Assembly (NCBI GenBank): GCA_016873615.1
Contig: VGWX01000001.1
Location: 53,734-117,733 of the forward strand
DNA length: 64,000 nt
Source: Nitrospira sp.
Lineage (GTDB): Bacteria; Nitrospirota; Thermodesulfovibrionia; Thermodesulfovibrionales; SM23-35
Reading direction: 5' to 3'
The notes beneath the pieces were generated by a model. The model saw nothing but the letters and a program-made list of their open reading frames with translations, did no database searches and was not told where the DNA came from. The translations under genes and the position numbers were made by a program. Of the stretch, positions 7,307 to 41,424 are shown piece after piece (position 1 is the first letter of the stretch; every line of letters begins with the position of its first letter).

Positions 7307-7591
7307 ATGAAACTCAGTGAAAATGTAAAGCCAATAAGTTATATCAAATCCCATGCTTCTGAAATCATCCGTGATTTAAGTGAGGAGAATAGCACTGTTG
7401 TCATTACCCTTAATGGAGAAGCAAAGGCAATTCTACAGGATATCCGTGAATACGAAAAAGTACAGGAGAGTCTTGCCATGCTAAAGATACTTGCACATAG
7501 CAGGAAAAGTCTTGAGGCAGGCAATACGAGACCTGCAAAGGATGTATTCCGCGATATCAGGGCAAAAGCAAAGGGAACTCAGCAAAGGTGA
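7307..7591 (+). CDS. type II antitoxin, Phd/YefM family
   Basis: 94 aa. N-terminus (ISYIKSHASEIIRDLSEENSTVVITLNGEAKAILQDIREYE) is typical of Phd/YefM. It overlaps the downstream toxin gene by 4 nt, and GGAGG lies upstream of the ATG. Confidence 0.8.
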   Translation: MKLSENVKPISYIKSHASEIIRDLSEENSTVVITLNGEAKAILQDIREYEKVQESLAMLKILAHSRKSLEAGNTRPAKDVFRDIRAKAKGTQQR

Positions 7592-7911
7592 AATACACTA
7601 TCGAGATCATCATTGATGCTGAGAACGACTTGCGGGAAATATATCGCTATGCAGCCAGGAATGATTCTATTGAAAAAGCGGACCGCCTGATCGACAACAT
7701 TGAGAAAACCATTTTTACGCTCGAAACACTTCCGTTCCGGGGCAATTATCCACCTGAGCTGGAGAGAATCGGCGTCCTGGAATACCGGGAGGTATTTTTC
7801 AAGCCTTATCGGATCATTTATCAGGTCATGAAATCTATTGTTTACATCCACTGTATCCTTGACGGCAGAAAAGATTTGCCCGATCTCCTACAGAGCAGAC
7901 TTTTAAGATAA
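7588..7911 (+). CDS. parE: type II toxin, ParE/RelE family
   Basis: 107 aa with GTG start overlapping the antitoxin stop. The pattern A..DL.EIY.Y...YRIIY...IVYIHCILDGRKD is typical of ParE/RelE. Confidence 0.8.
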   Translation: MKYTIEIIIDAENDLREIYRYAARNDSIEKADRLIDNIEKTIFTLETLPFRGNYPPELERIGVLEYREVFFKPYRIIYQVMKSIVYIHCILDGRKDLPDLLQSRLLR

Positions 7912-8047
7912 TTAACCGGTTAATCTTGTACCAGTACACATAGAAAAGATCATCTTGAGAGATTTCTGCTCCCGGTCTGTTACTTCCTGAAGTCCTACTC
8001 TTTTAATCTGGATATAGTCGTGCAGAGTATAACCAGTAAGAGCTAAT

Positions 8048-8068
8048 TTACTAATGCGGTCATTAGTA
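8048..8068. repeat. 21-nt palindromic element ttactaatGcggtcattagta (copy 1 of 2)
   Basis: Stem tactaatg / cattagta with a 4-nt loop. A second copy with one mismatch is at 24845-24865. Confidence 0.7.
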
Positions 8069-8090
8069 TGGCGACATAGTTTTGTCTGTT

Positions 8091-8296
8091 TGTCATTCTC
8101 CGGCTTGGAAGCTGTGTCGCAATTGCCTGAAAATATACATTTGTCATTCTGAACGAAGTGAAGAATCTCATGAAATTAATGTGTTATAAAACAGAGATTC
8201 TTCGGCTTGGGCCTCAGAATGACATTGTGACACAGTCTCTCGACCGGTGAATCCAGTTCCTTTCTCTGGATTGCCCGATCAAGTCAAGCAATGACG
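8091..8296. repeat. cluster of nested REP/MITE-like inverted repeats (GTCATT... family)
   Basis: Inner arms 8142-8169 (tgtcattctgaacgaagtgaagaatctc) and 8194-8224 (gagattcttcggcttgggcctcagaatgaca). Outer arms 8091-8125 and 8223-8254. A third unit at 8266-8296 is related to 23377-23430 and 9086-9120. Confidence 0.6.
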
Positions 8297-8386
8297 TACT
8301 TATAGCCGTCTTAGTAAATGGTCTATTGGGCTAATCAAAATTCATAAATACTATAAAACATGCCTTGACATTTTAAATTTATATGC

Positions 8387-8415
8387 TTGACTTTTTTTAT
8401 ACACTATAATACACT
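8387..8415 (+). promoter_or_regulatory. candidate sigma70-type promoter of the lexA-like gene with overlapping repeat/palindrome (possible operator)
   Basis: TTGACT (8387-8392), 17 nt spacer, TACACT (8410-8415). The ATG at 8426 follows with no SD, so the transcript looks leaderless or short-leadered. ATACAC is directly repeated (8399-8404, 8409-8414), and ATACA-N3-TGTAT is an imperfect palindrome at 8409-8421. Confidence 0.3.
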
Positions 8416-8425
8416 TTGTATAATT

Positions 8426-9052
8426 ATGAAGGCACAACTAAGTAAAAAACAAGCAGATGCAGTCCGTCATATCCGAAATTGGATTATGCATAAAGGCAAA
8501 ACCCCATCTGTCCGTGAGCTGATGACAGCGCTTGGATATAAATCTCCCAGATCGGCTGCTTTAATTATCGAGGAATTAATCCAGAAAGGTATTTTGAAAA
8601 AACGTTCAAATGGAAATTTGCAGTTAATAAAAGATATTGACGCAGATTCAGTTCATGCCCGCACAGTCGATATTCCCATAGTTGGTATGGTAACCTGTGG
8701 AGTGCCTATCTTGGCTCAGGAAAACATAGAGGGATTTATTCCTGTATCTGATTCCCTTGCAAAGCCCGGTTTTAAATACTTCTTGCTTAGGGCTAAAGGC
8801 GATTCTATGAACAAAGCTGGAATCAATGATGGAGATTTAATACTTGTTCGCCAGCAGTCAGTGGCACAAAATGGCGATATAGTTGTAGCACTGATTGATG
8901 ATGAAGCAACTGTGAAAGAGTTTCAACATAGCAAAAATTGTGTTGTTTTAATGCCTATGTCGAATAATAAAAGTCATAAGCCGATTATCCTGACTGAAAA
9001 TTTTCAGGTTCAAGGGGTAGCTGTAACAACAATTCCAAAATTGGAGGTTTGA
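8426..9052 (+). CDS. lexA: LexA-type repressor (winged-helix N-domain plus S24 autopeptidase)
   Basis: 208 aa from ATG 8426. The N-domain resembles the LexA DNA-binding domain (KTPSVRELMTALGYKSPRSAALIIEELIQKGILKK). The S24 catalytic Ser is in KGDSM and the Lys in ATVKEF. The linker VTCGVPILAQENIEG aligns to the LexA VAAGEP cleavage region. Confidence 0.8.
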   Translation: MKAQLSKKQADAVRHIRNWIMHKGKTPSVRELMTALGYKSPRSAALIIEELIQKGILKKRSNGNLQLIKDIDADSVHARTVDIPIVGMVTCGVPILAQENIEGFIPVSDSLAKPGFKYFLLRAKGDSMNKAGINDGDLILVRQQSVAQNGDIVVALIDDEATVKEFQHSKNCVVLMPMSNNKSHKPIILTENFQVQGVAVTTIPKLEV

Positions 9053-9085
9053 ATATGACAAAGAATGCACATTCACCCTCTTTTC

Positions 9086-9120
9086 TGTCATTCCCGCAAT
9101 CATTAAGCGGGAATCCAGAA
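9086..9120. repeat. REP-like hairpin (tgtcattcccgc...gcgggaatcc), possible terminator of the lexA-like gene
   Basis: 8-bp stem attcccgc (9090-9097) / gcgggaat (9107-9114). It has the same GTCATT... leader as the 8091-8296 and 23377-23430 copies. Confidence 0.5.
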
Positions 9121-9239
9121 GGTGTTGTTATAAAAATGAATTTATTGATCAAAAGGCGGATAAGGGATGGTTGAAAGGGGGAGGAAGGGAAAGTAGCTGA
9201 ATGAGCTAAATAATATTGTGATCTTGTGAGAATAACAAA

Positions 9240-10391
9240 GTGATATATTTGACACCAAGGGAAATAGATGAATTAGATGAAGAAAAATTAAGAACTTTTC
9301 TTCAGAAAAAATATAGAGAAAATAGATTTCTCGACTATAAATTAAAATACGAGAAACGCAATGATGAAGAAACAAAAGAGGAATTTCTTGCTGATGTAAC
9401 TGCGTTTGCAAATTATTATGGAGGAAATATAATCGTTGGCGTAAACGAACTTGAAGAAGAAGGAGCAAGTTCTCAACCGGGGGAGTTGGAGGGAATAAAT
9501 GATGGAAAAATTTTGGCTGAAAGGTTTAGTAATTTATGCGAAACTTCTATTGACCCCATAATTCCCGGGTTGATTATTAAGGAAATACCTCTTAAAAATG
9601 TAAGATGGGCAATTGTTGTTTATATTCCCCCCAGTCTCAGAAAGCCTCATATGGTTAATTTTAACCGTAAGAGAGAATTTTATATAAAACGTGATGACAG
9701 GAAGGGCAAGATGACAGCAGATGAAGTAAAAAGAACGGTTTTAGAAGTAATAAATCTTCAAAATGATATGAACTCATACATTAAAATGGTGGAAGAAGAA
9801 ATTATTGAGGACTTCATAGGTTATGACTTTGCCCTTATAATGCATTCTGTTCCGTATTTGCTTGAAGAAGGTCAGATTGACACATCATCTGAAATGATTA
9901 AATCAGCTTTGTATAACAATTCTTTGTTTATTAACTACAGCATAGATATTAGAACATCCTACTCCATAGCCAATATTCATGGTATTGTTGGACAAGATTC
10001 CTATCACGATCCTTTTATTCAAAGTTATATTCACCGAACAGGTTATATTGGGCTGGCAATTAATTTTCAAAAAAGATTTGCCATAACTGGAATAAAAGAT
10101 AAAATAATTTATCCTTCTAAAAACGATTTTTTATCTTTTTTAAGGCTTTCTGAACTTATTATTGAAAGGGCGCAGATAGCGCAGCTTTATCAAGTACGCA
10201 GTAGTTTTATAAATGCAAAGGGAGCGGTTTGCAGATGTGAAAGGATAGGCGGTTTTGAACGCCAATCAAATATTGTTTGGAAGCGTGATCGCATCAACCT
10301 GCCAGGTGTAAGACTTGATTCATTTCAAGATATTGATAAAGTTGCAGAATTATTTTTTAAGAGACTAAAAAATGCTTTTGGAATGGAATAA
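9240..10391 (+). CDS. Schlafen/AlbA_2 (divergent AAA) domain protein with uncharacterised about 200-aa C-terminal domain
   Basis: 383 aa. The N-terminal half matches the AlbA_2 pattern (FLDYKLKY..., ADVTAFANYYGGNIIVGVNE, VVYIPPSLRKPHMV, FYIKRDDRKGKMTADEV). I see no HTH or catalytic motif in the C-terminal half. The GTG start is uncertain and has no clear SD. Confidence 0.6.
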   Translation: MIYLTPREIDELDEEKLRTFLQKKYRENRFLDYKLKYEKRNDEETKEEFLADVTAFANYYGGNIIVGVNELEEEGASSQPGELEGINDGKILAERFSNLCETSIDPIIPGLIIKEIPLKNVRWAIVVYIPPSLRKPHMVNFNRKREFYIKRDDRKGKMTADEVKRTVLEVINLQNDMNSYIKMVEEEIIEDFIGYDFALIMHSVPYLLEEGQIDTSSEMIKSALYNNSLFINYSIDIRTSYSIANIHGIVGQDSYHDPFIQSYIHRTGYIGLAINFQKRFAITGIKDKIIYPSKNDFLSFLRLSELIIERAQIAQLYQVRSSFINAKGAVCRCERIGGFERQSNIVWKRDRINLPGVRLDSFQDIDKVAELFFKRLKNAFGME

Positions 10392-10456
10392 TTTAAATAA
10401 AATTTAAGCCCGCTACAATCAGCAGCGAGATGGAATGATTAACAAGAGGCTATATA

Positions 10457-11731
10457 ATGGCATCTATTAATGGAGATTGGTTTCATTCAAGGAGCAGTTC
10501 GAATCTTGAAGAATTATTGACAGTCAGGACATTGGTTCTTGAAAGTCAAAAATCTGAATATATTGGTTTTGGCTGGTCTGGGGGCAGGCTAAGAAATCAA
10601 AAAATGTATAAATTTGCTGCAGCAGCCGATATTCAGCCATCCACAATGCAAACTAAAATTCGTGCAATGATTCGTTACGGCTTTATTAAAGATGGTACTC
10701 AATGCCCGCTTGTCTGGACAAGAATGGGAAGTCTTTGGAATGACCTTTACACAGTGGGTAATTACGGTGCAGCCCAAAAAGTTTATGAATTAACTCTAAC
10801 AATTTCACTTGCGATTTATGCTTTTAATAATACACAGGCTCAATACAGCATAAATCCGGCAAATGGTGAAATGCCTTTGAGGTTCTTGTTAAATATTCTT
10901 GATACTCAGAATTCTATTTCTCTTCAAGAATTTGAAGCATTAGTTGACGGCAATACTCAAAGGGTAGGAGACAACGCTTCGTACTGGAAAAGAGATCTTA
11001 TAAATTCAGGGCTGTTTAAAGATGTACAAGGCGGATTATTTTATACAGGTAAGTATCCAGATTTTATTCGGGAAATTAAGAGTTTCGAGCCAAGTCCATT
11101 TTTAAACGATGCGGACTGGCAATCAATAAGAGAAAATCCACTAATTGAAATTTCACCATTCAGAAACTCAATTCGTTCAATTTTTGAAGCAATAACACAA
11201 GAACAAAATATAGAGGAACAAATTACCGATGAAATTTTCACAGCGCCATTGGTTAATGCCGTTGCAGAACAGGAAGAAATTCAAATGCCAGAGATTGACA
11301 TTTTAAGCAGTGATTTGAGGTTTTCACAAAGCACGCGAAGGATAAGGAATGCGGCATGGGCTATAAGAATAAAAAAGAAATATAATTACATATGTGCTAT
11401 CCCGAATTGTGATGTTATAGGACAAATCTTTGTTGAAGCTGCGCACATTAAGCCCGATAATGCACCGGATAGCAATATTCCACACAGGGCACATATCTTA
11501 AATGGACTATGTTTATGCAGGCATTGTCATATCGCTTTTGACAAAGGTTATTTCTCACTTACTGATACGCATAAAATCATTACATCAACAAGATTTAATG
11601 ATATACCTAACCAGAATCTCAAAACTGCCATAATTTCAAGTGCAAACATTCAAATCAAGAATAGAATGGATAGCAGGTTGCCATTAGTTGAATTTATTCA
11701 GTATCACAGGAGTAACAGATTTAAAGGTTAA
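10457..11731 (+). CDS. HNH-family nuclease, putative restriction endonuclease (large N-terminal recognition domain plus C-terminal HNH)
   Basis: 424 aa with AAGAGG SD upstream. The C-terminus YNYICAIPNCDV...VEAAHIKP...HRAHILNGLCLCRHCHIAFDKGYFSL is the HNH (HNH_2-type) signature. It sits immediately upstream of two DNA methyltransferases. Confidence 0.7.
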   Translation: MASINGDWFHSRSSSNLEELLTVRTLVLESQKSEYIGFGWSGGRLRNQKMYKFAAAADIQPSTMQTKIRAMIRYGFIKDGTQCPLVWTRMGSLWNDLYTVGNYGAAQKVYELTLTISLAIYAFNNTQAQYSINPANGEMPLRFLLNILDTQNSISLQEFEALVDGNTQRVGDNASYWKRDLINSGLFKDVQGGLFYTGKYPDFIREIKSFEPSPFLNDADWQSIRENPLIEISPFRNSIRSIFEAITQEQNIEEQITDEIFTAPLVNAVAEQEEIQMPEIDILSSDLRFSQSTRRIRNAAWAIRIKKKYNYICAIPNCDVIGQIFVEAAHIKPDNAPDSNIPHRAHILNGLCLCRHCHIAFDKGYFSLTDTHKIITSTRFNDIPNQNLKTAIISSANIQIKNRMDSRLPLVEFIQYHRSNRFKG

Positions 11732-11739
11732 GACATAAA

Positions 11740-13176
11740 ATGGGACATACTGACTTAACATATAAAGTATTATTTGATGAATTTGAAGTAGCCAGCATAG
11801 TTGCTGAACCAACATTAAATTACACCCTTTTTGAGGCTGAATTTAAAAATTCGCAAGCGGAGCAGATAAAAATATTTAATAAACTCGAACAGACTCTCCC
11901 GTTTTATAATGGCGAGTCTTTCAGAAATCAAGTACATTTTCAATTTGCTTACCAAACACCAGTCCAGAGATGGTTTCCTTATCGTGAAGGTTACTCCATA
12001 AAACTTGTAAATGCTTTTATCAAAGAGTTAAAAATTAAAGGAAATACTTTTGACCCATTCTCAGGAAGTGGAACCACCCTTCTGGCTTCACGCATGGCTG
12101 ATTTAAATTCATTTGGAATTGATGTAAATCCTGTTTCTGTCTTAGCTGCTAACGTTGAAAATGAACAATACACGCCAGAGGATATTATTCAAGTTGAAGA
12201 AGAATCAAAAAAGCTGACGAACATTGAAAAATCTAAGGAGATTTTTCAGACCTCTTTTGATCTGGCTAATAAAGTATTTAATCAAGATATTTTACAGGCA
12301 CTTCTTCAATTTAAACAACATATAAAAGCTATTCAGCATGAGAAAACTAAAGAGGTACTCTTTGTTGCATGGCTTTCAATAATTGAAGATGTTTCAAACA
12401 TTAAGAAAGAAGGCAACGGAATCAAATACAAAAATCGCAAGAGAACTCCCAATGGTTATATAAACATTGAAAAAGAAAGATGGGAAAATGAAAAATTTCC
12501 TGATAATAAATTTAGCTTTGTAAAAACAAAACTCTCTAATCGTATTGAAATAATTTTATCTGACTTGAAATTTGCTTATGGTAAATGTGATAAAAAACCA
12601 AACATCTATAAGGGCAATTGCTTAGACTTTGAAAAGTTCTTTTCAGATGAAATTGAATTAACTTTCTTTTCACCTCCTTACTGTAACTGCTTTGACTATT
12701 TTGAGATACATAAGGTTGAGCTTTGGCTTGGAGAGTTTGTTTCTGACAAAGAAGAATTCAGAAAATTGCGAAACACTGGTTTTCGTTCAAATACGAATTC
12801 GTTAAATCATAAGCCAATAATTTATAAGAATGAATACCTTGAAAATCTTATAAGCTTTTTTGAACCTCAAAAACTTTGGAATAATAATATTCCGAATGTT
12901 GCAAGAGGTTATTTTGATGATATCTACACTCTCTTAAATAAACTCTACCAACAAACAACTAAAAATGGTTATATAGGAATTGTTGTTGGCAATTCTGCTT
13001 ATTCAGGTGTAATTATTCCAACAGATAGTTTAATTGCTGAAATTGCAAGAGAAATAGGCTTTAAAGTAAAAAGCATCTTTGTTACAAGGCATTTAACTAC
13101 AAGCTCTCAACAAAAACAGGAATTGGATTATCTGAAAAACTATTTAAGAGAGAGTATTGTATTACTTGAAAGATAA
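11740..13176 (+). CDS. DNA methyltransferase (N6-adenine or N4-cytosine), motif I before motif IV
   Basis: 478 aa. It has FDPFSGSGTT (SAM motif I, about residue 105) and FFSPPYCNCFDY (catalytic motif IV, about residue 310). It lies 8 nt after the HNH gene. Confidence 0.75.
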   Translation: MGHTDLTYKVLFDEFEVASIVAEPTLNYTLFEAEFKNSQAEQIKIFNKLEQTLPFYNGESFRNQVHFQFAYQTPVQRWFPYREGYSIKLVNAFIKELKIKGNTFDPFSGSGTTLLASRMADLNSFGIDVNPVSVLAANVENEQYTPEDIIQVEEESKKLTNIEKSKEIFQTSFDLANKVFNQDILQALLQFKQHIKAIQHEKTKEVLFVAWLSIIEDVSNIKKEGNGIKYKNRKRTPNGYINIEKERWENEKFPDNKFSFVKTKLSNRIEIILSDLKFAYGKCDKKPNIYKGNCLDFEKFFSDEIELTFFSPPYCNCFDYFEIHKVELWLGEFVSDKEEFRKLRNTGFRSNTNSLNHKPIIYKNEYLENLISFFEPQKLWNNNIPNVARGYFDDIYTLLNKLYQQTTKNGYIGIVVGNSAYSGVIIPTDSLIAEIAREIGFKVKSIFVTRHLTTSSQQKQELDYLKNYLRESIVLLER

Positions 13177-13181
13177 TTAGA

Positions 13182-14498
13182 ATGCATGATTACCTTTTTG
13201 TAAAAGAAGTCATACCGGCTGAAATTAAGCAAGATTCAATTTTGAATATACGCACAAATAATGTAACTGCCTATACACACGGTTTTCATAAATATCCGGC
13301 TAAATTCATTCCGCATATCCCAAAATGGGCAATCAATAAATATTTGGCAGGACAAAAAAACAAAACTATATTAGACCCATTCTGTGGTTCAGGCACAACT
13401 TTAGCAGAAGGAATTTTAGCAGGACATAATGTAATTGGTATTGACATAGATCCTTTATCATGTCTGATCGCGAAAGTCAAAACCACGAATGTTAATACTG
13501 CAGAGCTAAACAAAGTTTCAAACTGGCTTGCAAAAGGAGTTAAAAAGAAAAAAAGAGGAGAGTTTAAGCCGGAATGCGAAACGATTGGACATTGGTTTCC
13601 TAAAGAAACAATAAACAAGCTTTCAATAATACGGACTCTCATTAATCAGATTCCTGAAAGATTTGGCAATAATAAAAGCATTAAAGATATTCAGCATCTT
13701 TTAATTATATGTTTTTCATCTATAATACGGCGTGTTTCTTATGCAGATAATGAGTCGCAAAAAACTTATGTTTCACACACTCACATTAAAACCCCTGAAG
13801 AACCATTGAGTCTTTTTCTTTTACAACTTGATTTGTTCAAGGAGAGAATTGCTAAGTTCCCTGAAAACATTCCTAAACTTAGAAATCGGATTATTTGTTC
13901 ATCAAGTACAGAATCGTTAAAAGTAAAACTGAAAGGACAACATATAAATTTAGCAATCACTTCGCCACCCTATATCAAAGCTATAGATTATATTTACAAT
14001 CAGATGGTTGAATTATTTTGGATTGGAGATTTATTTGGCATACAAACACAGTCAAAACAGAATGAAAAGAAAAAAGAATACATTGGGACAAAACATTTTC
14101 ATAAAAAAGAGTTTGTAAAATATACACCGTTTGAAACAACTATAGGAATTAAAAAACTGGACAATAAGATTCAAAAGGTATTTAAAACAGACAAGATAAA
14201 CGGGCATAAACATGCCTACATTACATTCAAATATTTTGTGGGTATGGAAAACCACTTTGCAGAAATATCAAAATGCTTAGACAAAGGCAGGCATTATATA
14301 ATGGTAGTCGGCGACAGTTCAGTAAGCAACATTTTCTTTTATACTGCTAACTTTTTGACGGAAATTGCGGAGCGAAATGGTTTTAGAATAACCAACAAGT
14401 GGGGCTACAAAATCAAGAATCGTTATATGAGATTTGACAGAAATGGACGAGGTGGAATAATTGATATTGATTGGGTTTTAGATTTAGTTAGAGTATAA
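13182..14498 (+). CDS. DNA methyltransferase (N6-adenine or N4-cytosine), paralog of the preceding gene
   Basis: 438 aa with LDPFCGSGTT (about residue 65) and ITSPPYIKAIDY (about residue 262). The C-terminal block HYIMVVGDSS...FLTEIAERNGFRI parallels YIGIVVGNSA...LIAEIAREIGFKV of the upstream enzyme. The gap between them is 5 nt. Confidence 0.75.
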   Translation: MHDYLFVKEVIPAEIKQDSILNIRTNNVTAYTHGFHKYPAKFIPHIPKWAINKYLAGQKNKTILDPFCGSGTTLAEGILAGHNVIGIDIDPLSCLIAKVKTTNVNTAELNKVSNWLAKGVKKKKRGEFKPECETIGHWFPKETINKLSIIRTLINQIPERFGNNKSIKDIQHLLIICFSSIIRRVSYADNESQKTYVSHTHIKTPEEPLSLFLLQLDLFKERIAKFPENIPKLRNRIICSSSTESLKVKLKGQHINLAITSPPYIKAIDYIYNQMVELFWIGDLFGIQTQSKQNEKKKEYIGTKHFHKKEFVKYTPFETTIGIKKLDNKIQKVFKTDKINGHKHAYITFKYFVGMENHFAEISKCLDKGRHYIMVVGDSSVSNIFFYTANFLTEIAERNGFRITNKWGYKIKNRYMRFDRNGRGGIIDIDWVLDLVRV

Positions 14499-14583
14499 AT
14501 TTTGAAAAGAATAGCAAGTAGGGTCTTGAAACATCAGTTTTTTATTCTGCCTGTTGAACACATCACCTTAAAAGGAGTGTGCT

Positions 14584-15306
14584 ATGAATAACAAAGGATT
14601 GTCGGAAGTCTTGCAGTCCTCTTCACTGCTTGGTCAGGTCGTAGGCGCAGAGAAACTCTTTCTCTCGGGCCGCCGGAAACGGGGAGAAGATCTCGAGAGC
14701 GCGGTGAGATTCTTTCTCGAGTTCCTGCACGGCTTTGAGAGTTTTGATTTTGATGGTCCATGTGTAACGGTTTTTGGATCAGCGCGCTTTCAGGAAAGAC
14801 ATCGCTACTACGAACTGGCGCGCGAACTTGGACGTGCGCTCGCCAATGCAGGCTATGCTGTCATGACAGGAGGCGGACCAGGCATCATGGAAGCTGCAAA
14901 CCGCGGCGCCAAAGAAGGCGGGGGCTTAAGCCTCGGCTGCAATATCAAGCTACCATTTGAACAGAAACCAAATCCATACCTCGACAAGTTCATCGAATTT
15001 GAGCACTTTTTCGTGCGCAAGGTGATGCTTGTAAAATACTCCACTGCATTCGTCGTGATGCCGGGCGGGTTTGGCACGCTTGATGAGGCTTTCGAAGTGA
15101 TTACGCTCGCTCAGACCGGAAAACTTGAGCGATTTCCAGTCGTAGGCATGGTCAGGGAATTTTGGGACCATCTCCGCCGGTTCATGAACGACACCATGCT
15201 GGCTGAGGGCACCATAAGCAGCGAGGACATGGATTTGATCCACGGAGCAAACACGGTTGAGGATGCCATTCGCATTATCCGGGGGCTCTCGCGCGGAAAC
15301 TTTTAA
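14584..15306 (+). CDS. LOG-family (TIGR00730) Rossmann-fold nucleotide-binding protein
   Basis: 240 aa with GGGPGIMEA and PGGFGTLDE motifs. AAAGGAG SD is present. It is markedly more GC-rich than the cassette to its left. Confidence 0.85.
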   Translation: MNNKGLSEVLQSSSLLGQVVGAEKLFLSGRRKRGEDLESAVRFFLEFLHGFESFDFDGPCVTVFGSARFQERHRYYELARELGRALANAGYAVMTGGGPGIMEAANRGAKEGGGLSLGCNIKLPFEQKPNPYLDKFIEFEHFFVRKVMLVKYSTAFVVMPGGFGTLDEAFEVITLAQTGKLERFPVVGMVREFWDHLRRFMNDTMLAEGTISSEDMDLIHGANTVEDAIRIIRGLSRGNF

Positions 15307-35932: not shown

Positions 35933-37681
35933 ATGCCCCAGATTAAGGTTCTGCCAAGAGATTTACGAAACAAGATTGCAGCAGGAGAGGTGATCGAAAG
36001 ACCTGCTTCTGTTGCAAAGGAATTGATAGAAAACTCAATTGATGCAGGGAGTACCGACATACAGATTGACATCCTCTACGGAGGAAAGCGTCTTATAAAG
36101 GTATCTGATAACGGGACTGGAATGGGGAAGGAAGACGCACTACTCTGCTACGAAAGACATGCAACAAGCAAACTGGGTTCTGAAGACGACCTTTTCAACA
36201 TTAAGACAATGGGTTTCAGGGGAGAAGCCCTTCCATCCATCGCCTCTGTAACAAAAATGAAGATAATTACCGGAGAAAAAGGTTCCACTTCAGGTCTGTC
36301 AATCGAATTAGCAGGAGGCGAGGTTCGGGAGATAAAGGATTCCCCTTCTGCCGGCACAATGGTTGAAGTCAGAGACTTGTTCTTTAATACGCCTGCAAGG
36401 AAAAAGTTTCTGAAATCGAACAGCACTGAACTTTTTCACATTATAGATACACTCACAAAAGAGGCCCTTTCCCACTGGGAGATCGGCTTCAGACTTCGTT
36501 CTGACAACAAGGAAATCTTAAGCCTTCCTTTAGCCTCCGGCCCTAAGGAACGCATTCTGCAGGTCTACGGCGAAGAGTTTATGAAAGGCCTCACAGAGGT
36601 GAATAATCCCCCCTTGCCCCCCTTTAGTAAAGGGGGGTTGAGGGGATTTGTGAAAAGCCGGGATGAGGGACAATTGATTAATGTAAAGATGAATGCATTC
36701 ATCTCAAAAGTCAATAATTTCAGAAATATGAAATCCCATCAGTTCATCTTTATAAACAGAAGACCGATAAAGGACCAGTCAGTGTCTCACGCAGTATATA
36801 AAGCTTACGAAGGCATAATCCCCCATGACAAGCATCCCGTCTTCTTTCTATTTCTCGACGTTGATCCTGCCAGTGTGGATGTGAATGTCCATCCGGCAAA
36901 ACGTGAGGTCAGATTTGAGAATAAGGAATTGGTCTATCGCTTTATAAATAGCAGCATAAGAGAAGCTGTAAGGAGCGAGCGGGCTGAATATACTAAACAA
37001 TTCACAGGAATTCCTGCGATAGATTTTCCCCCGCCTCATCCGGAGATTTCATCATCGCCTTACCACTTACCCCTTCCCACTCATGAATCTCAAATATCCG
37101 AAAATCTCGAACTGGCCTACAGGGCATTGTTGCCGTTCATATACCTCGGAGACACATTTATTGCCCTTTCAGGTAAAGGAGGGCTTACGCTCATCGACCA
37201 TCATGCTGCCCATGAAAGGATTCTCTATGAAAGATTTCTAAGTGGGATTAACCTTAATTCCCATCAGCTGTTATTCCCAAGGCAGGTAAAGCTTTCACAT
37301 AAAGAATACATGGTTATCCTTCAGAACCTCCATATACTCATAGACTTTGGAATTGAGACAGATGATTTTGGACATGATACTATTATTGTTCGCTCCTTAC
37401 CCGATGTTTTAAGAGAAGCTGATATAAGAGGGATTTTCTCGGATATTGCATCATGTATTATCGAAGGTGTTGCGCCTGACAAATCTTTTAAAAAGGATCT
37501 TGCTGCACGGATTGCATGTCACAGTTCAGTAAGGGGCAAAGAAATCCTCAATCAGGAAGAACTCTCAAACCTTATTGCCGACCTTGAGCAGACAGAATAC
37601 CCTGACCAGTGTCCTCACGGCAGGCCGACAAGAATCTTCTTTTCTCTGGACGATCTGAAGAAGATGTTTAAGAGGAAATGA
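35933..37681 (+). CDS. mutL: DNA mismatch repair protein MutL
   Basis: 582 aa with GHKL ATPase motifs (AAGEVIERPASVAKELIENSIDAG, DNGTGM) and the C-terminal dimerisation/endonuclease region. Confidence 0.95.
   Translation: MPQIKVLPRDLRNKIAAGEVIERPASVAKELIENSIDAGSTDIQIDILYGGKRLIKVSDNGTGMGKEDALLCYERHATSKLGSEDDLFNIKTMGFRGEALPSIASVTKMKIITGEKGSTSGLSIELAGGEVREIKDSPSAGTMVEVRDLFFNTPARKKFLKSNSTELFHIIDTLTKEALSHWEIGFRLRSDNKEILSLPLASGPKERILQVYGEEFMKGLTEVNNPPLPPFSKGGLRGFVKSRDEGQLINVKMNAFISKVNNFRNMKSHQFIFINRRPIKDQSVSHAVYKAYEGIIPHDKHPVFFLFLDVDPASVDVNVHPAKREVRFENKELVYRFINSSIREAVRSERAEYTKQFTGIPAIDFPPPHPEISSSPYHLPLPTHESQISENLELAYRALLPFIYLGDTFIALSGKGGLTLIDHHAAHERILYERFLSGINLNSHQLLFPRQVKLSHKEYMVILQNLHILIDFGIETDDFGHDTIIVRSLPDVLREADIRGIFSDIASCIIEGVAPDKSFKKDLAARIACHSSVRGKEILNQEELSNLIADLEQTEYPDQCPHGRPTRIFFSLDDLKKMFKRK
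36605..36648. repeat. 44-nt G/C-tract palindromic element inside mutL (in frame)
   Basis: aatccccccttgcccccctttagtaaaggggggttgaggggatt. It belongs to the same family as 30764-30808 and encodes NPPLPPFSKGGLRGF. Confidence 0.75.
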
Positions 37682-38246
37682 ACTTATCTAAATATTTTTG
37701 TGTATAAATCGGGAACCTTTTTGAAAAGTCTTTCACTGTAGCCATTGAAAGCTTTTTAATATCAATTTCGTCTACATCTATCGAGGCTATCCCCCTCGAT
37801 GCAAAATAGACAAGGTCAAGAAATGCCTTCTCAGTCTTTGCAATATAGATTCCTCCCTTCATCTCATAGCCCCAGAAAAGCTCCTTTTTTATCTGTCTGA
37901 ACTCTACATCCCTTTCTTCAACAGTTAGTCTTTTAGTTTTTCTTGTTGTGGCAAAGGTTAAAGTATAAGGCACAAGGTTAAGAACACTGTATCTCGAAAG
38001 CGCAGATTCGAATGAGAGGTAGTTTGGCATATAAAGGGATGCAGCAATTTTCTCTATGGATGGTCTTGCTGTAAAGAGGCGATAAATGCCCTTGCTCACC
38101 CTTTCCAATATGCCGCTATCAACCCATCGTTTAATTGTCACATATATGCTATCTTTGGGCAGACCGGTTAACTTTTCGAGATCTGTGACAGAATAAAATG
38201 GTTTGTTAAATCGCTCAAGGGACTTTATAAGCTCTATTGTCTTCAT
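37668..38246 (-). CDS. AbiEi-family antitoxin (type IV TA, winged-helix)
   Basis: 192 aa. SVTDLEKLTGLPKDSIYVTIKRWVDSGILERVSKGIYRL and PNYLSFESALSRYSVL are typical of AbiEi. It overlaps the mutL 3' end by 14 nt (convergent). Confidence 0.7.
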   Translation of the reverse strand: MKTIELIKSLERFNKPFYSVTDLEKLTGLPKDSIYVTIKRWVDSGILERVSKGIYRLFTARPSIEKIAASLYMPNYLSFESALSRYSVLNLVPYTLTFATTRKTKRLTVEERDVEFRQIKKELFWGYEMKGGIYIAKTEKAFLDLVYFASRGIASIDVDEIDIKKLSMATVKDFSKRFPIYTQKYLDKFISS

Positions 38247-38968
38247 ATCTTTAATGTATCAATTACGGGCCAGAAATCTTTTGGAAGGTATTTCCTTAAT
38301 TCACGTACAAGTTCTCTTTTAGGGATTGAAATAGTATCAGGCTTATATTCCGTTTTAAGTTTCTGACATATATACCACAAATCAAAAATATCTTTTGGCT
38401 TTGCCCTCTCTTTTATACATGCAAGCTTGTCTTTAAATAATTGTTCAAGGGTAGCCACCCTGCCGAGACACTGTATAGTAGAAAGAGGGGATGACATAAG
38501 CGATAAATCAGATTTATATTTTTTATCATGCCTTTTAGATATCTCAACCTTTATCCTGAAAGGCGAAGGAAGATAGTCCTGATTAATTTTAATCTCTCCA
38601 AGATATGTGTAATATTTTTCCTCTAAATCTGTTAATGCAAGCTCTGGATACGGAGAAATGATTTTTTTGATAAGGAGACCGAATTTGTCCTTTAACTTAT
38701 CCTCGGTAAGAGAGAAATCAAGGTCTTCAGAGAACCTCGGAGAACCGTAGACGAGCCTTAATGCTGTACCACCCTTGAATATAAGATAATTTCCCTCCGG
38801 AGAATCAAAAAGCCCTTTCAATAGTATAGTCTCCCAGAACTCCCTGACCACTTGAGTCATATCAATTTTTAAAGTCTTCGCCTGATTCTCCGCTATCTCT
38901 CGTTCCATATTTATTAACAGTTTTGTTAAGTTATAAGGAACTATATAATATCCATGAAGTTTTGTCAA
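38243..38968 (-). CDS. AbiEii/AbiGii-family nucleotidyltransferase toxin
   Basis: 241 aa with LIFKGGTALRLVYGSPRFSEDLDFS (DUF1814 NTase motif). It overlaps the downstream AbiEi gene by 4 nt. Confidence 0.8.
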   Translation of the reverse strand: MTKLHGYYIVPYNLTKLLINMEREIAENQAKTLKIDMTQVVREFWETILLKGLFDSPEGNYLIFKGGTALRLVYGSPRFSEDLDFSLTEDKLKDKFGLLIKKIISPYPELALTDLEEKYYTYLGEIKINQDYLPSPFRIKVEISKRHDKKYKSDLSLMSSPLSTIQCLGRVATLEQLFKDKLACIKERAKPKDIFDLWYICQKLKTEYKPDTISIPKRELVRELRKYLPKDFWPVIDTLKI

Positions 38969-39169
38969 ATTTTAAATCATCGTCGTTGACATCAAACATA
39001 CATTTTGATAGCTTATTAAAAGCATTGAGATGAAAATAGCAGAGTTTATACAAAGAATTGCAGTCAGGGAAAGAGACACTGGACTTATTTACAAAGGCAT
39101 ATAGCCATTATGGAAACCGACGGAAAAAAGGAAATTATCAATAGCCAAGTCTGACCACATAAATAGGAA

Positions 39170-40165
39170 ATGAACAAAGTCATCATCCTTCTTGGACCCA
39201 CAGGCGTTGGGAAGACCGGGGTATCTATCCTCCTTGCAAGGGAACTGAAAACGGAAATAATCAGTGCGGATTCAATGCAGATTTACAGGCATATGGACAT
39301 TGGGACTGCAAAGCCTGCGCCTGAAGAGAGGGCTCTGATCAGACATCATATGATAGATATCGCTGATCCATGGGAGTCTTTCAGTACAGGGAAATACATC
39401 GCAGCAGTTGTGCCTGTTATTGAGCATTTGCATAGGAATGGAAAAATCCCTGTATTAGTTGGAGGAACAGGGCTTTATATTAAGGCAATGACTCGCGGCA
39501 TCTTCAGCGGTCCTTCTGCGGACTGGAAATTGAGACAAGAGTTTCTCTCGATGGAAAAGGAAGAGGAAGGTTCTCTTTACTATTATCTCAAAGAACTTGA
39601 CCCTGAAGCTGCACTAAAAATAACTCCGAAGGATATACGGAGAATCATCAGGGCTATTGAAGTCTGCCTGAAAAGCAATATCCGCATTTCAGATATGCAG
39701 AAAAATCTCACTCAACCGCTTCCATATGAGTTTATTAAAATTGGTATCACCCGTGACAGAAAAGAACTTTACAGGATGATCGAAGACAGGGTTGATGAGA
39801 TGATAAAGATAGGACTCATTGATGAAGTAAAGAGATTAACAAATCTGCTGAAGGAAACGGAGACGCGGAGACACGGGAACGCGGAGAAAGAAAAATTCAC
39901 CGATTTGCCGATTCACCGATTCGCCGATTCGCCTTTTCCTTCCATGCAGGCTATAGGATATAAAGAGATCGCCATGTGCCTGCATGGAGAGATTTCTTTA
40001 GACGAGGCAGTCATGGTCATAAAGCGGGACACAAAAAGGTATGCGAAAAGGCAATTCACCTGGTTCAGAAAAGAAGAACATATTCAATGGGTCGACATAA
40101 CAGGCGTTCAGGACAGCAACGAAGTTTTTACAAGGGTCTTGAATACTCTTAAAACCAAGCTGTAA
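39170..40165 (+). CDS. miaA: tRNA dimethylallyltransferase
   Basis: 331 aa with P-loop GPTGVGKT and IGYKE. It contains a repeat-derived insertion (39856-39933). Confidence 0.95.
   Translation: MNKVIILLGPTGVGKTGVSILLARELKTEIISADSMQIYRHMDIGTAKPAPEERALIRHHMIDIADPWESFSTGKYIAAVVPVIEHLHRNGKIPVLVGGTGLYIKAMTRGIFSGPSADWKLRQEFLSMEKEEEGSLYYYLKELDPEAALKITPKDIRRIIRAIEVCLKSNIRISDMQKNLTQPLPYEFIKIGITRDRKELYRMIEDRVDEMIKIGLIDEVKRLTNLLKETETRRHGNAEKEKFTDLPIHRFADSPFPSMQAIGYKEIAMCLHGEISLDEAVMVIKRDTKRYAKRQFTWFRKEEHIQWVDITGVQDSNEVFTRVLNTLKTKL
39856..39933. repeat. two short tandem-repeat blocks inside miaA (CGGAGA x3; CCGATTNN x4)
   Basis: acggagacgcggagacacgggaacgcggagaaag and caccgatttgccgattcaccgattcgccgattcgcc. 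Together they encode ETETRRHGNAEKEKFTDLPIHRFADSP. Confidence 0.65.
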
Positions 40166-40234
40166 AAGGAAAATCTTGCAATATTAGGAAAAATACTTTA
40201 TGGTAGAAGATATAAAAAATAAGGAGAACAGGTC

Positions 40235-40474
40235 ATGTCAATCGCCGGCAAAGCTATAAACCTTCAGGACATCTATCTGAACCAGCTCAGGAAAGACAAA
40301 ATTCCTGTTGTGATATATCTCACGAACGGGGTCCGGCTGAAAGGCACAATAAGAGGCTTTGATAATTTTGTGCTTCTCTTGAGAGAAAATACTAATTCGC
40401 TTATTTATAAACATGCTATATCGACTATAATACCCGAGAAAGATATAGAGATAGGATTTGAAGAGCAGTTATAA
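40235..40474 (+). CDS. hfq: RNA chaperone Hfq
   Basis: 79 aa with Sm1/Sm2 motifs ([34 protein letters not shown]). It follows miaA as in many bacteria. Confidence 0.95.
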
Positions 40475-41338: not shown

Positions 41339-41424
41339 GCCGAAGTGGTGGAACCTGGTAGACACGCACGTTTGAGGGGCGTGTGGGGTAACCCGTGCGG
41401 GTTCAAATCCCGCCTTCGGCACCA
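41339..41424 (+). tRNA. tRNA-Leu (anticodon GAG), type II with long variable arm, CCA encoded
   Basis: Hand-folded. Acceptor GCCGAAG/CTTCGGC. Anticodon stem CACGT/GCGTG with loop TTGAGGG (GAG at 41374-41376). 13-nt variable arm. T-arm GCGGG-TTCAAAT-CCCGC. Discriminator A plus CCA. Confidence 0.9.

Follow-up and report, generated by a model that had tools for sequence, protein, structure and literature searches.

The window analysed here is a 64-kb stretch of DNA from Nitrospira sp., and all coordinates count from its first letter. On its forward strand lies a gene for a LexA-family protein that carries a Cys-Gly pair where canonical LexA has its scissile Ala-Gly bond. A compact promoter overlapped by short repeats precedes the gene, and genes of anti-phage defence type follow it on the same strand. 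The gene and its control region comprise the following features.

8387–8392, + strand: −35 hexamer TTGACT of the lexA promoter, invariant or nearly so in ~20 Nitrospirota-type loci and found also in Patescibacteria and Spirochaetia relatives
8398–8421, + strand: putative tripartite operator TATACAC-TAT-AATACAC-TTT-GTAT, with direct half-sites ATACAC at 8399–8404 and 8409–8414 and an inverted half-site TGTAT at 8417–8421
8410–8415, + strand: −10 hexamer TACACT, 17 nt from the −35 and within the second operator half-site (TACACT or TACAGT in relatives)
8426–9052, + strand: lexA coding sequence, 208 aa plus stop codon, without a Shine–Dalgarno (SD) sequence
8696–8701, 8804–8806 and 8915–8917, within lexA: codons for Cys91-Gly92, Ser127 and Lys164, respectively

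The earlier note on this DNA had assigned the product to LexA from its winged helix–turn–helix (wHTH) domain and its S24 Ser/Lys dyad, and three comparisons now agree on this. Pfam finds LexA_DNA_bind (PF01726, 2.5e-10, residues 4–60) and Peptidase_S24 (PF00717, 3.6e-32); the NCBIfam lexA equivalog TIGR00498 is matched with 165.2 bits against a cut-off of 110.95; and residues 5–203 pair with residues 4–196 of Escherichia coli LexA, our structural reference (PDB 1JHH, 3JSO, 7B5G). In that alignment the motif GDSM lies opposite E. coli GMSM and TVKEF opposite TVKRL, so that Ser127 corresponds to Ser119 and Lys164 to Lys156; both residues are kept in 188/188 aligned relatives inspected. The cleavage loop reads VGMVTCGVP opposite VGRVAAGEP, placing Cys91-Gly92 on Ala84-Gly85, as the note had proposed. 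The canonical Ala-Gly bond is thus absent from the aligned position, and self-cleavage at Cys91-Gly92, by analogy with the natural site of UmuD, is plausible. An identical protein in the database, from a Nitrospira/Nitrospirota metagenome-assembled genome (MAG), is annotated as LexA.

Other identities for the protein were considered and set aside. It is not UmuD: it scores 75.5 bits on the UmuD model NF007621, short of the cut-off of 110, it has a wHTH domain and the adjoining genes match no polymerase family in Pfam; nor was umuC or another Y-family polymerase gene seen near the gene in the window. PADLOC gives no match and Pfam reports the LexA_DNA_bind and S24 domains alone, hence no homology to WYL or CapH/CapP regulators. 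Database annotations of 215–221 aa use in-frame starts further upstream, TTG (8387) or ATG; these lie inside the promoter/operator, and the N-terminus of the shorter protein pairs with E. coli LexA residue 1.

The Cys-Gly pair, which the note had pointed out in this one gene, turned out to be the rule across a large group. Cys-Gly is present in all but one of the 120 best database homologues (63–100% identity), the exception having Cys-Ser. When 188 relatives drawn from fetched loci were aligned, it occurred in 19/19 of those at least 80% identical and in 28/30 of those at 50–80%, and relatives below ~45% identity, mostly from Firmicutes, had mainly Ala-Gly. Judged from these alignments, the Cys-Gly pair is a clade trait of a large LexA subfamily. 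The gene is under purifying selection, with a median ratio of non-synonymous to synonymous change (dN/dS) of 0.13 at dS 0.49 among 16 Nitrospirota copies and a ratio of ~0.1–0.2 against every relative.

Members of the subfamily were found in Nitrospirota (85–93% identity), in Bacteroidota of the Chitinophagales, Cytophagales and Flavobacteriia (55–62%), in Patescibacteria (55–59%), and also in Omnitrophota, one Spirochaetia MAG and one Desulfobulbaceae MAG. Pseudochryseolinea flava SDU1-6 (L013) is one of the carriers. Bacteroidota have been reported to be without a canonical LexA (PMC8565304), and because members occur there the distribution is patchy. A search of 2.9 million viral contigs yielded neither a close relative, the best being 37% identical, nor the operator. 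On these two results a phage origin of lexA was rejected, and phages are not the usual carriers of the module. Many IMG/VR contigs (L163–L183, L193) encode proteins ~46% identical in the S24 domain only (residues 80–200), with Cys-Gly kept (I-ACGTP).

Upstream of lexA the features listed above agree to the nucleotide with those of the earlier note, which had described the promoter TTGACT-17-TACACT, the ATACAC repeats, the imperfect palindrome ATACA-N3-TGTAT (8409–8421) and an ATG without an SD sequence. Conservation extends this description well beyond the window. The string CTTGACT-N6-TATACAC-TAT-nATACAs-TTTGTAT-N4-ATG is almost invariant before ~20 Nitrospirota-type copies, with unrelated DNA further 5′, and the tripartite arrangement is kept 5′ of ~30 homologues. 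The spacing reads TTGACT-18-TACACT-7-ATG in a Paceibacterota locus and TTGACA-17-TATACT-6-ATG in a Spirochaetia locus; Bacteroidota loci have two TATACAS repeats 10–11 nt apart, the last ending 0–4 nt before the ATG; and in some Flavobacteriia and other loci the whole three-part element is inverted.

When up to 2 mismatches are tolerated, ATACAS-N4-ATACAS-N3-GTAT has a single match in the 64 kb, where 0.04 would be expected, so that chance does not account for the tripartite repeat. A 24-nt position weight matrix (PWM) of the operator finds one match per locus, always at the lexA promoter, and the promoter/operator of the window scores 39.3 of a maximum of 41.2. Searches of the window and its Nitrospirota-type relatives with regular expressions and with this matrix found no second operator before cargo or SOS genes; short half-site matches do occur elsewhere, for instance in locus L016 at 14829. 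The half-sites overlap the −35 and −10 hexamers, so the layout is that expected for autorepression. Together with the cross-phylum conservation and the single occurrence per locus, this supports the ATACA repeats as putative self-operators, which the note had called plausible. It had also stated that no known LexA box is matched; this holds for the classical boxes, and does not hold in full, as the repeats resemble the direct repeat TTACACATATTTTWTACATA of Balneolaeota (PMC7739468).

The start codon at 8426 lies 10 nt past the −10, and no GGAG, GAGG or AGGA occurs at −20 to −4. An SD-like sequence was found before lexA in 0/19 Nitrospirota-type copies, yet GGAGG precedes the next open reading frame (ORF) in 16/18 related loci and an SD sequence is present for 19 of 42 other ORFs of the window. 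SD sequences are thus in use in the host, and lexA in particular lacks one. With the −10 ending 6–10 nt before the ATG in most relatives, the geometry and its conservation favour translation of lexA from a leaderless or near-leaderless transcript, and the note's impression of a leaderless start gains weight from this recurrence. A TATAAT at 8419–8424 was considered as the −10 and rejected: it is not kept in relatives and would put the transcription start inside the gene. Rfam holds no known RNA element for the surroundings of lexA.

Downstream, the window carries the remains of a small gene and then four larger cargo genes.

9043–9047, + strand: SD sequence GGAGG, inside the 3′ end of lexA, for the small ORF with ATG at 9055
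9055–9196, + strand: remnant of a small gene (57-aa PADLOC candidate PDC-S38), of which the 5′ 16 nt and the 3′ ~60 nt are homologous to intact copies
9240–10391, + strand: 383-aa Schlafen/AlbA_2 domain protein (Pfam SLFN_AlbA_2, 2.1e-14)
10457–11731, + strand: HNH nuclease (Pfam HNH_2; PADLOC HNH, 3.8e-13), with a counterpart of 93% aa identity in related locus L007
11740–13176, + strand: type II DNA methyltransferase (PADLOC MTase_II, 1.1e-80; Pfam N6_N4_Mtase)
13182–14498, + strand: second type II DNA methyltransferase (PADLOC MTase_II, 1.6e-70; also recognised by Pfam), at the end of the low-GC island

In the small gene the middle has been swapped for a hairpin-bearing repeat (TGTCATTCCCGC..GCGGGAATCC, ~9086–9118) and the frame is broken. 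This hairpin is related to nested inverted repeats resembling miniature inverted-repeat transposable elements (MITEs) 5′ of lexA (8089–8283, with TGTCATTC termini at 8091, 8142 and, on the reverse strand, 8217), and has no Rfam match. Small genes in relatives overlap or abut the lexA stop codon. One type encodes the 57-aa protein (PADLOC PDC-S38, 6.8e-27), another an 80-aa DUF2188 protein (PADLOC PDC-S16, 7.4e-15), and elsewhere other short ORFs are found. DUF2188 also occurs with CapH/CapP regulators (bioRxiv 10.1101/2022.04.27.489752).

Bacterial Schlafen nucleases defend against phages, according to a recent result (PMC13056530), and a Schlafen gene like that of the window follows lexA–DUF2188 in Saccharibacteria locus L019. 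The HNH nuclease is probably a restriction component. Prediction for the + strand gave no terminator-like site from 7900 to 15000. The GC content is 31–36% over 8–14 kb and returns to ~42–45% beyond ~14.5 kb, where the genes look like core genes (LOG/SLOG-family, radical SAM, ABC-F, class II aminoacyl-tRNA synthetase). The note had put the AT content of lexA on a level with that of the island around it, which has to be corrected: at 39% GC it stands between the core (~43–45%) and the cargo (~33%).

The context of lexA in its relatives is the evidence that links it to defence. Compared with nine related Nitrospirota genomes, nucleotide homology to the window covers 8383–9070 only, from the promoter through lexA into the first few codons of the following ORF; L007 alone of the nine also shares the HNH and methyltransferase genes. 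What follows the small gene is variable, almost always on the strand of lexA. After lexA, ~38 loci of the subfamily together contribute 138 co-directional ORFs, each of 100 aa or more, against 14 in 41 loci of the canonical control, which consists of 39–41 canonical Ala-Gly lexA loci at 38–47% identity, mostly from Firmicutes.

The pooled cargo is mainly of defence type: methyltransferases, restriction enzymes, SMODS/CD-NTase cyclases with SAVED, patatin or transmembrane partners, ThsB-type TIR proteins, Schlafen/AlbA_2 proteins, ResIII helicases and ThiF/E1-like proteins. Among the 138 ORFs Pfam and PADLOC count N6_N4_Mtase 11, SMODS 8, N6_Mtase 5, Eco57I 5, ResIII 4, SAVED 2, ThsB_TIR 2, SLFN 2, MTase_II 11 and cyclase 10. 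By our own count, defence cargo can be recognised among the first few genes in ~28/38 informative loci; it belongs to restriction–modification, cyclic oligonucleotide-based anti-phage signalling (CBASS)/SMODS, Schlafen, TIR, caspase–helicase and ubiquitin-like classes. Examples are patatin with CD-NTase (L005), HNH-SAVED with CD-NTase (L094), a caspase–helicase (L017), HerA with PAPS reductase and an Eco57I-type methylase (L082), RE_AlwI with Dam methylases (L205) and an MmeI-type enzyme (L206). Thus, in different taxa, lexA borders defence systems that are diverse and not homologous to one another, a trait of defence-regulator classes.

None of the defence families is among the top families of the control neighbours. 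There the gene after lexA is usually convergent, and the four nearest downstream genes are housekeeping genes (RsfS, NadD, YqeK-type HD, Obg, MiaA, MutL, GlnA). Terminator-like hairpins within 400 nt after lexA were found in 6/34 subfamily loci, mostly weak and inside ORFs, versus 21/39 control loci, a comparison that spans phyla possibly differing in terminator usage.

Several signs point to horizontal exchange of the gene. Between the window and L008 the synonymous divergence (pS) is 0.37 for lexA and 0.77 for mutL; between L002 and L085, which share lexA ... mnmG synteny with differing cargo between, it is 0.24 for lexA and 0.71 for mnmG. The GC content of lexA is 39–43% regardless of host flanks of 39–54%. 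Two MAGs carry two copies each, a count that mis-binning or bin contamination may inflate: JACQXB01 has them on separate contigs with different restriction–modification cargo (L003, L205), and JACQXE01 has a pair of 92% nt identity (L002, L026). Finally, P0114 (63% identical; L210–L213) is the same Cys-Gly LexA on at least 24 contigs, lying inside a conjugative element (TraF, TraH, TraG_N, S26 peptidase, ParA) and followed by a 168-aa ORF and by SMODS, KAP NTPase, TIR and DACNV genes. The note's suggestion that the gene is borne by an island is supported by the restricted homology, the low synonymous divergence, the duplicate copies, the conjugative-element copy and the presence of defence cargo in ~3/4 of loci.

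Family membership, the catalytic and cleavage-site residues, the conservation of promoter and operator, a defence association that is missing in the control, and the signs of horizontal exchange are observed. From them we consider it probable, though well short of assured, that the gene encodes a functional LexA-family autorepressor of a horizontally exchanged Cys-Gly subfamily and stands nearest the promoter in anti-phage defence cassettes of varying content. Its predicted mode of action includes binding to the repeats, leaderless translation, cleavage at Cys-Gly stimulated by activated RecA (RecA*) on the analogy of UmuD, and co-transcription of the cargo. LexA dimers would occupy the three ATACA half-sites and thereby repress a single promoter of sigma-70 type, whose −35 and −10 these sites overlap. 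The transcript would begin at the ATG or a few nucleotides away, and lexA would be translated from it without a leader. The next small gene, a remnant in the window, would be translationally coupled through the GGAGG in the 3′ end of lexA. Read-through would then reach the co-directional cargo, namely the Schlafen-type protein, the HNH nuclease and the two methyltransferases. On DNA damage, or when a phage generates single-stranded DNA (ssDNA), RecA would be activated and would stimulate UmuD-like self-cleavage at Cys91-Gly92 by Ser127/Lys164, derepressing module and cargo alike. The common direction of the genes, their short gaps and the scarcity of terminators may point, indirectly, to such a release of the cargo on DNA damage.

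A number of observations weigh against this picture. No operator stands before any cargo gene, so the cargo would be controlled by read-through alone; restriction–modification needs constitutive methylation and fits poorly with tight repression of the SOS type, so that basal methylase expression would have to coexist with read-through control. The small partner gene of the window is broken. The P0044 lineage has a lexA entirely without the conserved promoter/operator. Defence cargo is lacking in the Spirochaetia MAG locus L022, a lexA–small ORF–recA operon, in two Flavobacteriia MAG loci with a DEAD-box helicase (L020, L021) and in L089, with core genes. The reservations attached above to the two-copy MAGs and to the terminator comparison belong here too.

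One alternative is that the gene is simply the only SOS repressor of this Nitrospirota lineage, an ordinary housekeeping LexA that an ancestor acquired a single time, with a defence-island hotspot as its 3′ flank and its regulon of recA, uvr and translesion synthesis polymerase genes elsewhere. The score above the TIGR00498 cut-off, the recA operon of L022, the similar TACAC/TACAT direct repeat of a validated SOS LexA in Balneolaeota (PMC7739468), the fixed core genes xerC-hslVU-argB upstream in one species and the common lexA ... mnmG flanks of L002 and L085 all accord with it. We nevertheless think it unlikely. A lineage-specific hotspot would not explain why the layout lexA–small gene–defence recurs in unrelated phyla, and against the reading stand also a synonymous divergence 2–3 times below that of adjacent core genes, a GC content independent of the host, a patchy presence in at least 5 phyla that include Bacteroidota (reported without canonical LexA; PMC8565304), a copy on a conjugative element and two MAGs with two copies each, whose cargo differs in the sole case with both visible. 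Moreover, no operator was found elsewhere in the 64-kb window or the fetched Nitrospirota-type loci. A second lexA or a recA was not found in the window. The protein may have an additional SOS role elsewhere in the genome, parallel to its role in the defence module.

It is less likely still that the protein is a maintenance repressor of a mobile element, like SetR of SXT or phage cI, controlling excision or transfer with the defence genes as passive cargo. P0114 does have TraF/TraH/TraG/ParA genes on one side and cargo on the other, in at least 24 contigs, a resolvase and DUF3854/DUF3631 are found near the Omnitrophica lexA, and insertion sequence (IS) elements or a transposase follow lexA in L198 and L086. 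Genes for an integrase, for transfer or for replication are, however, missing from the Pfam annotation of the window island and of most Nitrospirota loci; the genes directly downstream and co-directional are those of defence, not of mobility; and the failure to find a closer viral homologue than 37%, or the operator, in the 2.9 million viral contigs argues in the same direction.

That the module is a decaying or silent relic with no present regulatory role seems very improbable, since the remnant small ORF, the MITE-like inverted repeats on the flanks of lexA and the loss of the promoter in a related lineage are set against an intact lexA ORF with all catalytic residues, an intact promoter/operator close to its maximal PWM score and the low dN/dS against every relative. 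An integron-like cassette was also considered and set aside, the cargo being multi-gene systems and attC-like repeats not being seen.

Returning to the autorepressor of defence cassettes, its similarity to canonical E. coli LexA is extensive: the PF01726 wHTH, linker and S24 domains, the Ser/Lys dyad, the aligned G-x-V-x-x-G-x-P loop and operators, putative here, at its own promoter. It differs in its Cys-Gly rather than Ala-Gly bond, in a putative operator of three ATACA repeats instead of CTGT-N8-ACAG, in a start that appears leaderless and in its signs of horizontal exchange; it heads a co-directional defence cassette, whereas canonical lexA is monocistronic among housekeeping genes. With UmuD, the E. 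coli Pol V subunit, it shares a Cys-Gly pair at the scissile position, putative here, and the S24 dyad, and the example of UmuD makes clear that a Cys-Gly bond is compatible with RecA*-stimulated self-cleavage; UmuD, in contrast to the LexA described here, has no DNA-binding domain.

Direct-repeat LexA operators have precedents. The alphaproteobacterial box GTTC-N7-GTTC is one, and the Balneolaeota box TTACACATATTTTWTACATA, validated by electrophoretic mobility shift assay and governing a classical SOS regulon (PMC7739468), is another with TACAC/TACAT half-sites. Its repeat period is ~13, compared with 10 in the window, where there is also an extra inverted half-site.

In function, the nearest counterparts are CapW/BrxR, which are WYL regulators, and the CapH–CapP pair. 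These local regulators sit at the edges of CBASS, BREX, DISARM and DUF2188 operons and react to DNA damage or ssDNA. They belong to unrelated families: WYL proteins bind ssDNA directly and the CapP-type metallopeptidase cleaves an HTH repressor, whereas the LexA of the window would use host RecA*. CapH/CapP are also divergently oriented and this lexA is co-directional. A possible analogy for LexA with PDC-S38 or DUF2188 is UmuDAb–DdrR of Acinetobacter, an S24 repressor that acts with a small accessory protein from the adjoining gene (PMC11332147). UmuDAb has another DNA-binding domain, and its regulon consists of error-prone polymerases. DdrR is to our knowledge unrelated to the PDC-S38 and DUF2188 proteins.

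The S24 repressors of SetR/cI type and the non-canonical LexA of Bacteroidetes (COG2932) are cleavable with RecA* and carried by, or derived from, mobile elements (PMC8565304). They have a five-helix HTH of cI type; here the domain is a LexA wHTH, not HTH_3, and close viral relatives are lacking. The window island contains no mobility genes, and an integrative and conjugative context is found only for the distant relative P0114.

On a broader view, which we advance tentatively as rather less likely than not, LexA(Cys-Gly) and its small partner, PDC-S38 or DUF2188, would join WYL and CapH/CapP as a third kind of portable switch that couples anti-phage immunity to DNA damage. It would use host RecA* and move horizontally over at least 5 phyla, serving interchangeable defence cassettes as their control module at the 5′ end. 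How defence systems stay silent and then switch on is a current question in phage defence, and few local regulators are known. If the proposal is correct, RecA*–LexA, the oldest known bacterial damage switch, has been co-opted as a portable immune regulator of restriction–modification, CBASS, Schlafen and TIR cassettes. The PADLOC candidates PDC-S38 and PDC-S16 would be regulatory partners, not effectors, and the recurrence of two small proteins of unknown function in defence islands would be explained. The system would offer a simple experimental handle of one promoter, one operator and one cleavage site, a natural Cys-Gly LexA for studies of S24 autoproteolysis and a conserved leaderless lexA for studies of translation initiation. 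Should the gene be merely a housekeeping LexA, the finding shrinks to a new LexA box, in a phylum that has been little studied. In the searchable literature we found no LexA-family regulator heading defence cassettes, no Cys-Gly LexA clade and no conserved leaderless lexA, although an earlier mention is possible.

Some further observations concern the neighbourhoods of related genes. In L207 a lexA–DUF2188 pair is surrounded by Prok-Ub/E2/JAB/ThiF, AbiEi/AbiEii, ArdC and SMODS+SLATT genes. In Omnitrophica (L208, L209) SIR2, Vsr and a Dcm methylase lie upstream of lexA, and DUF3892, a resolvase and DUF3854/DUF3631 downstream. The P0044 loci (L195–L204, 88% identical), from a groundwater population, have lexA after xerC-hslV-hslU-argB-nitroreductase. 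Their contigs nearly all break 150–350 bp past lexA, and L198 continues to an IS3-type transposase after a truncated gene of the metallo-beta-lactamase fold, which suggests strain-variable or repeat-rich DNA directly after lexA in this lineage.

Within the window, an overlapping pair at 7307–7911, just 5′ of the lexA promoter region, encodes, according to Pfam, a 94-aa antitoxin of Phd/YefM type and a ParE toxin of 107 aa. At the right edge of the low-GC island (14584–15306) lies a LOG/'possible lysine decarboxylase' protein of the SLOG family, which may be cargo or core, with a weak PADLOC match to PsyrA (5.5e-4). The 448-aa DEAD-box-type helicase at 828–2174 on the reverse strand is 34–37% identical to the gene directly after lexA in Flavobacteriia loci L020 and L021 and in L035, a resemblance that is probably coincidental. 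The only tRNA of the window, tRNA-Leu (GAG) at 41339–41424, is away from the island. ORFs at 35933–40474 resemble neighbours of Firmicutes lexA, and those counterparts carry MutL, MiaA (IPPT) and related Pfam domains. The 582-aa ORF in this region of the window is 69–73% identical to a gene of Nitrospirota locus L008 that lies 2.3 kb from its lexA.

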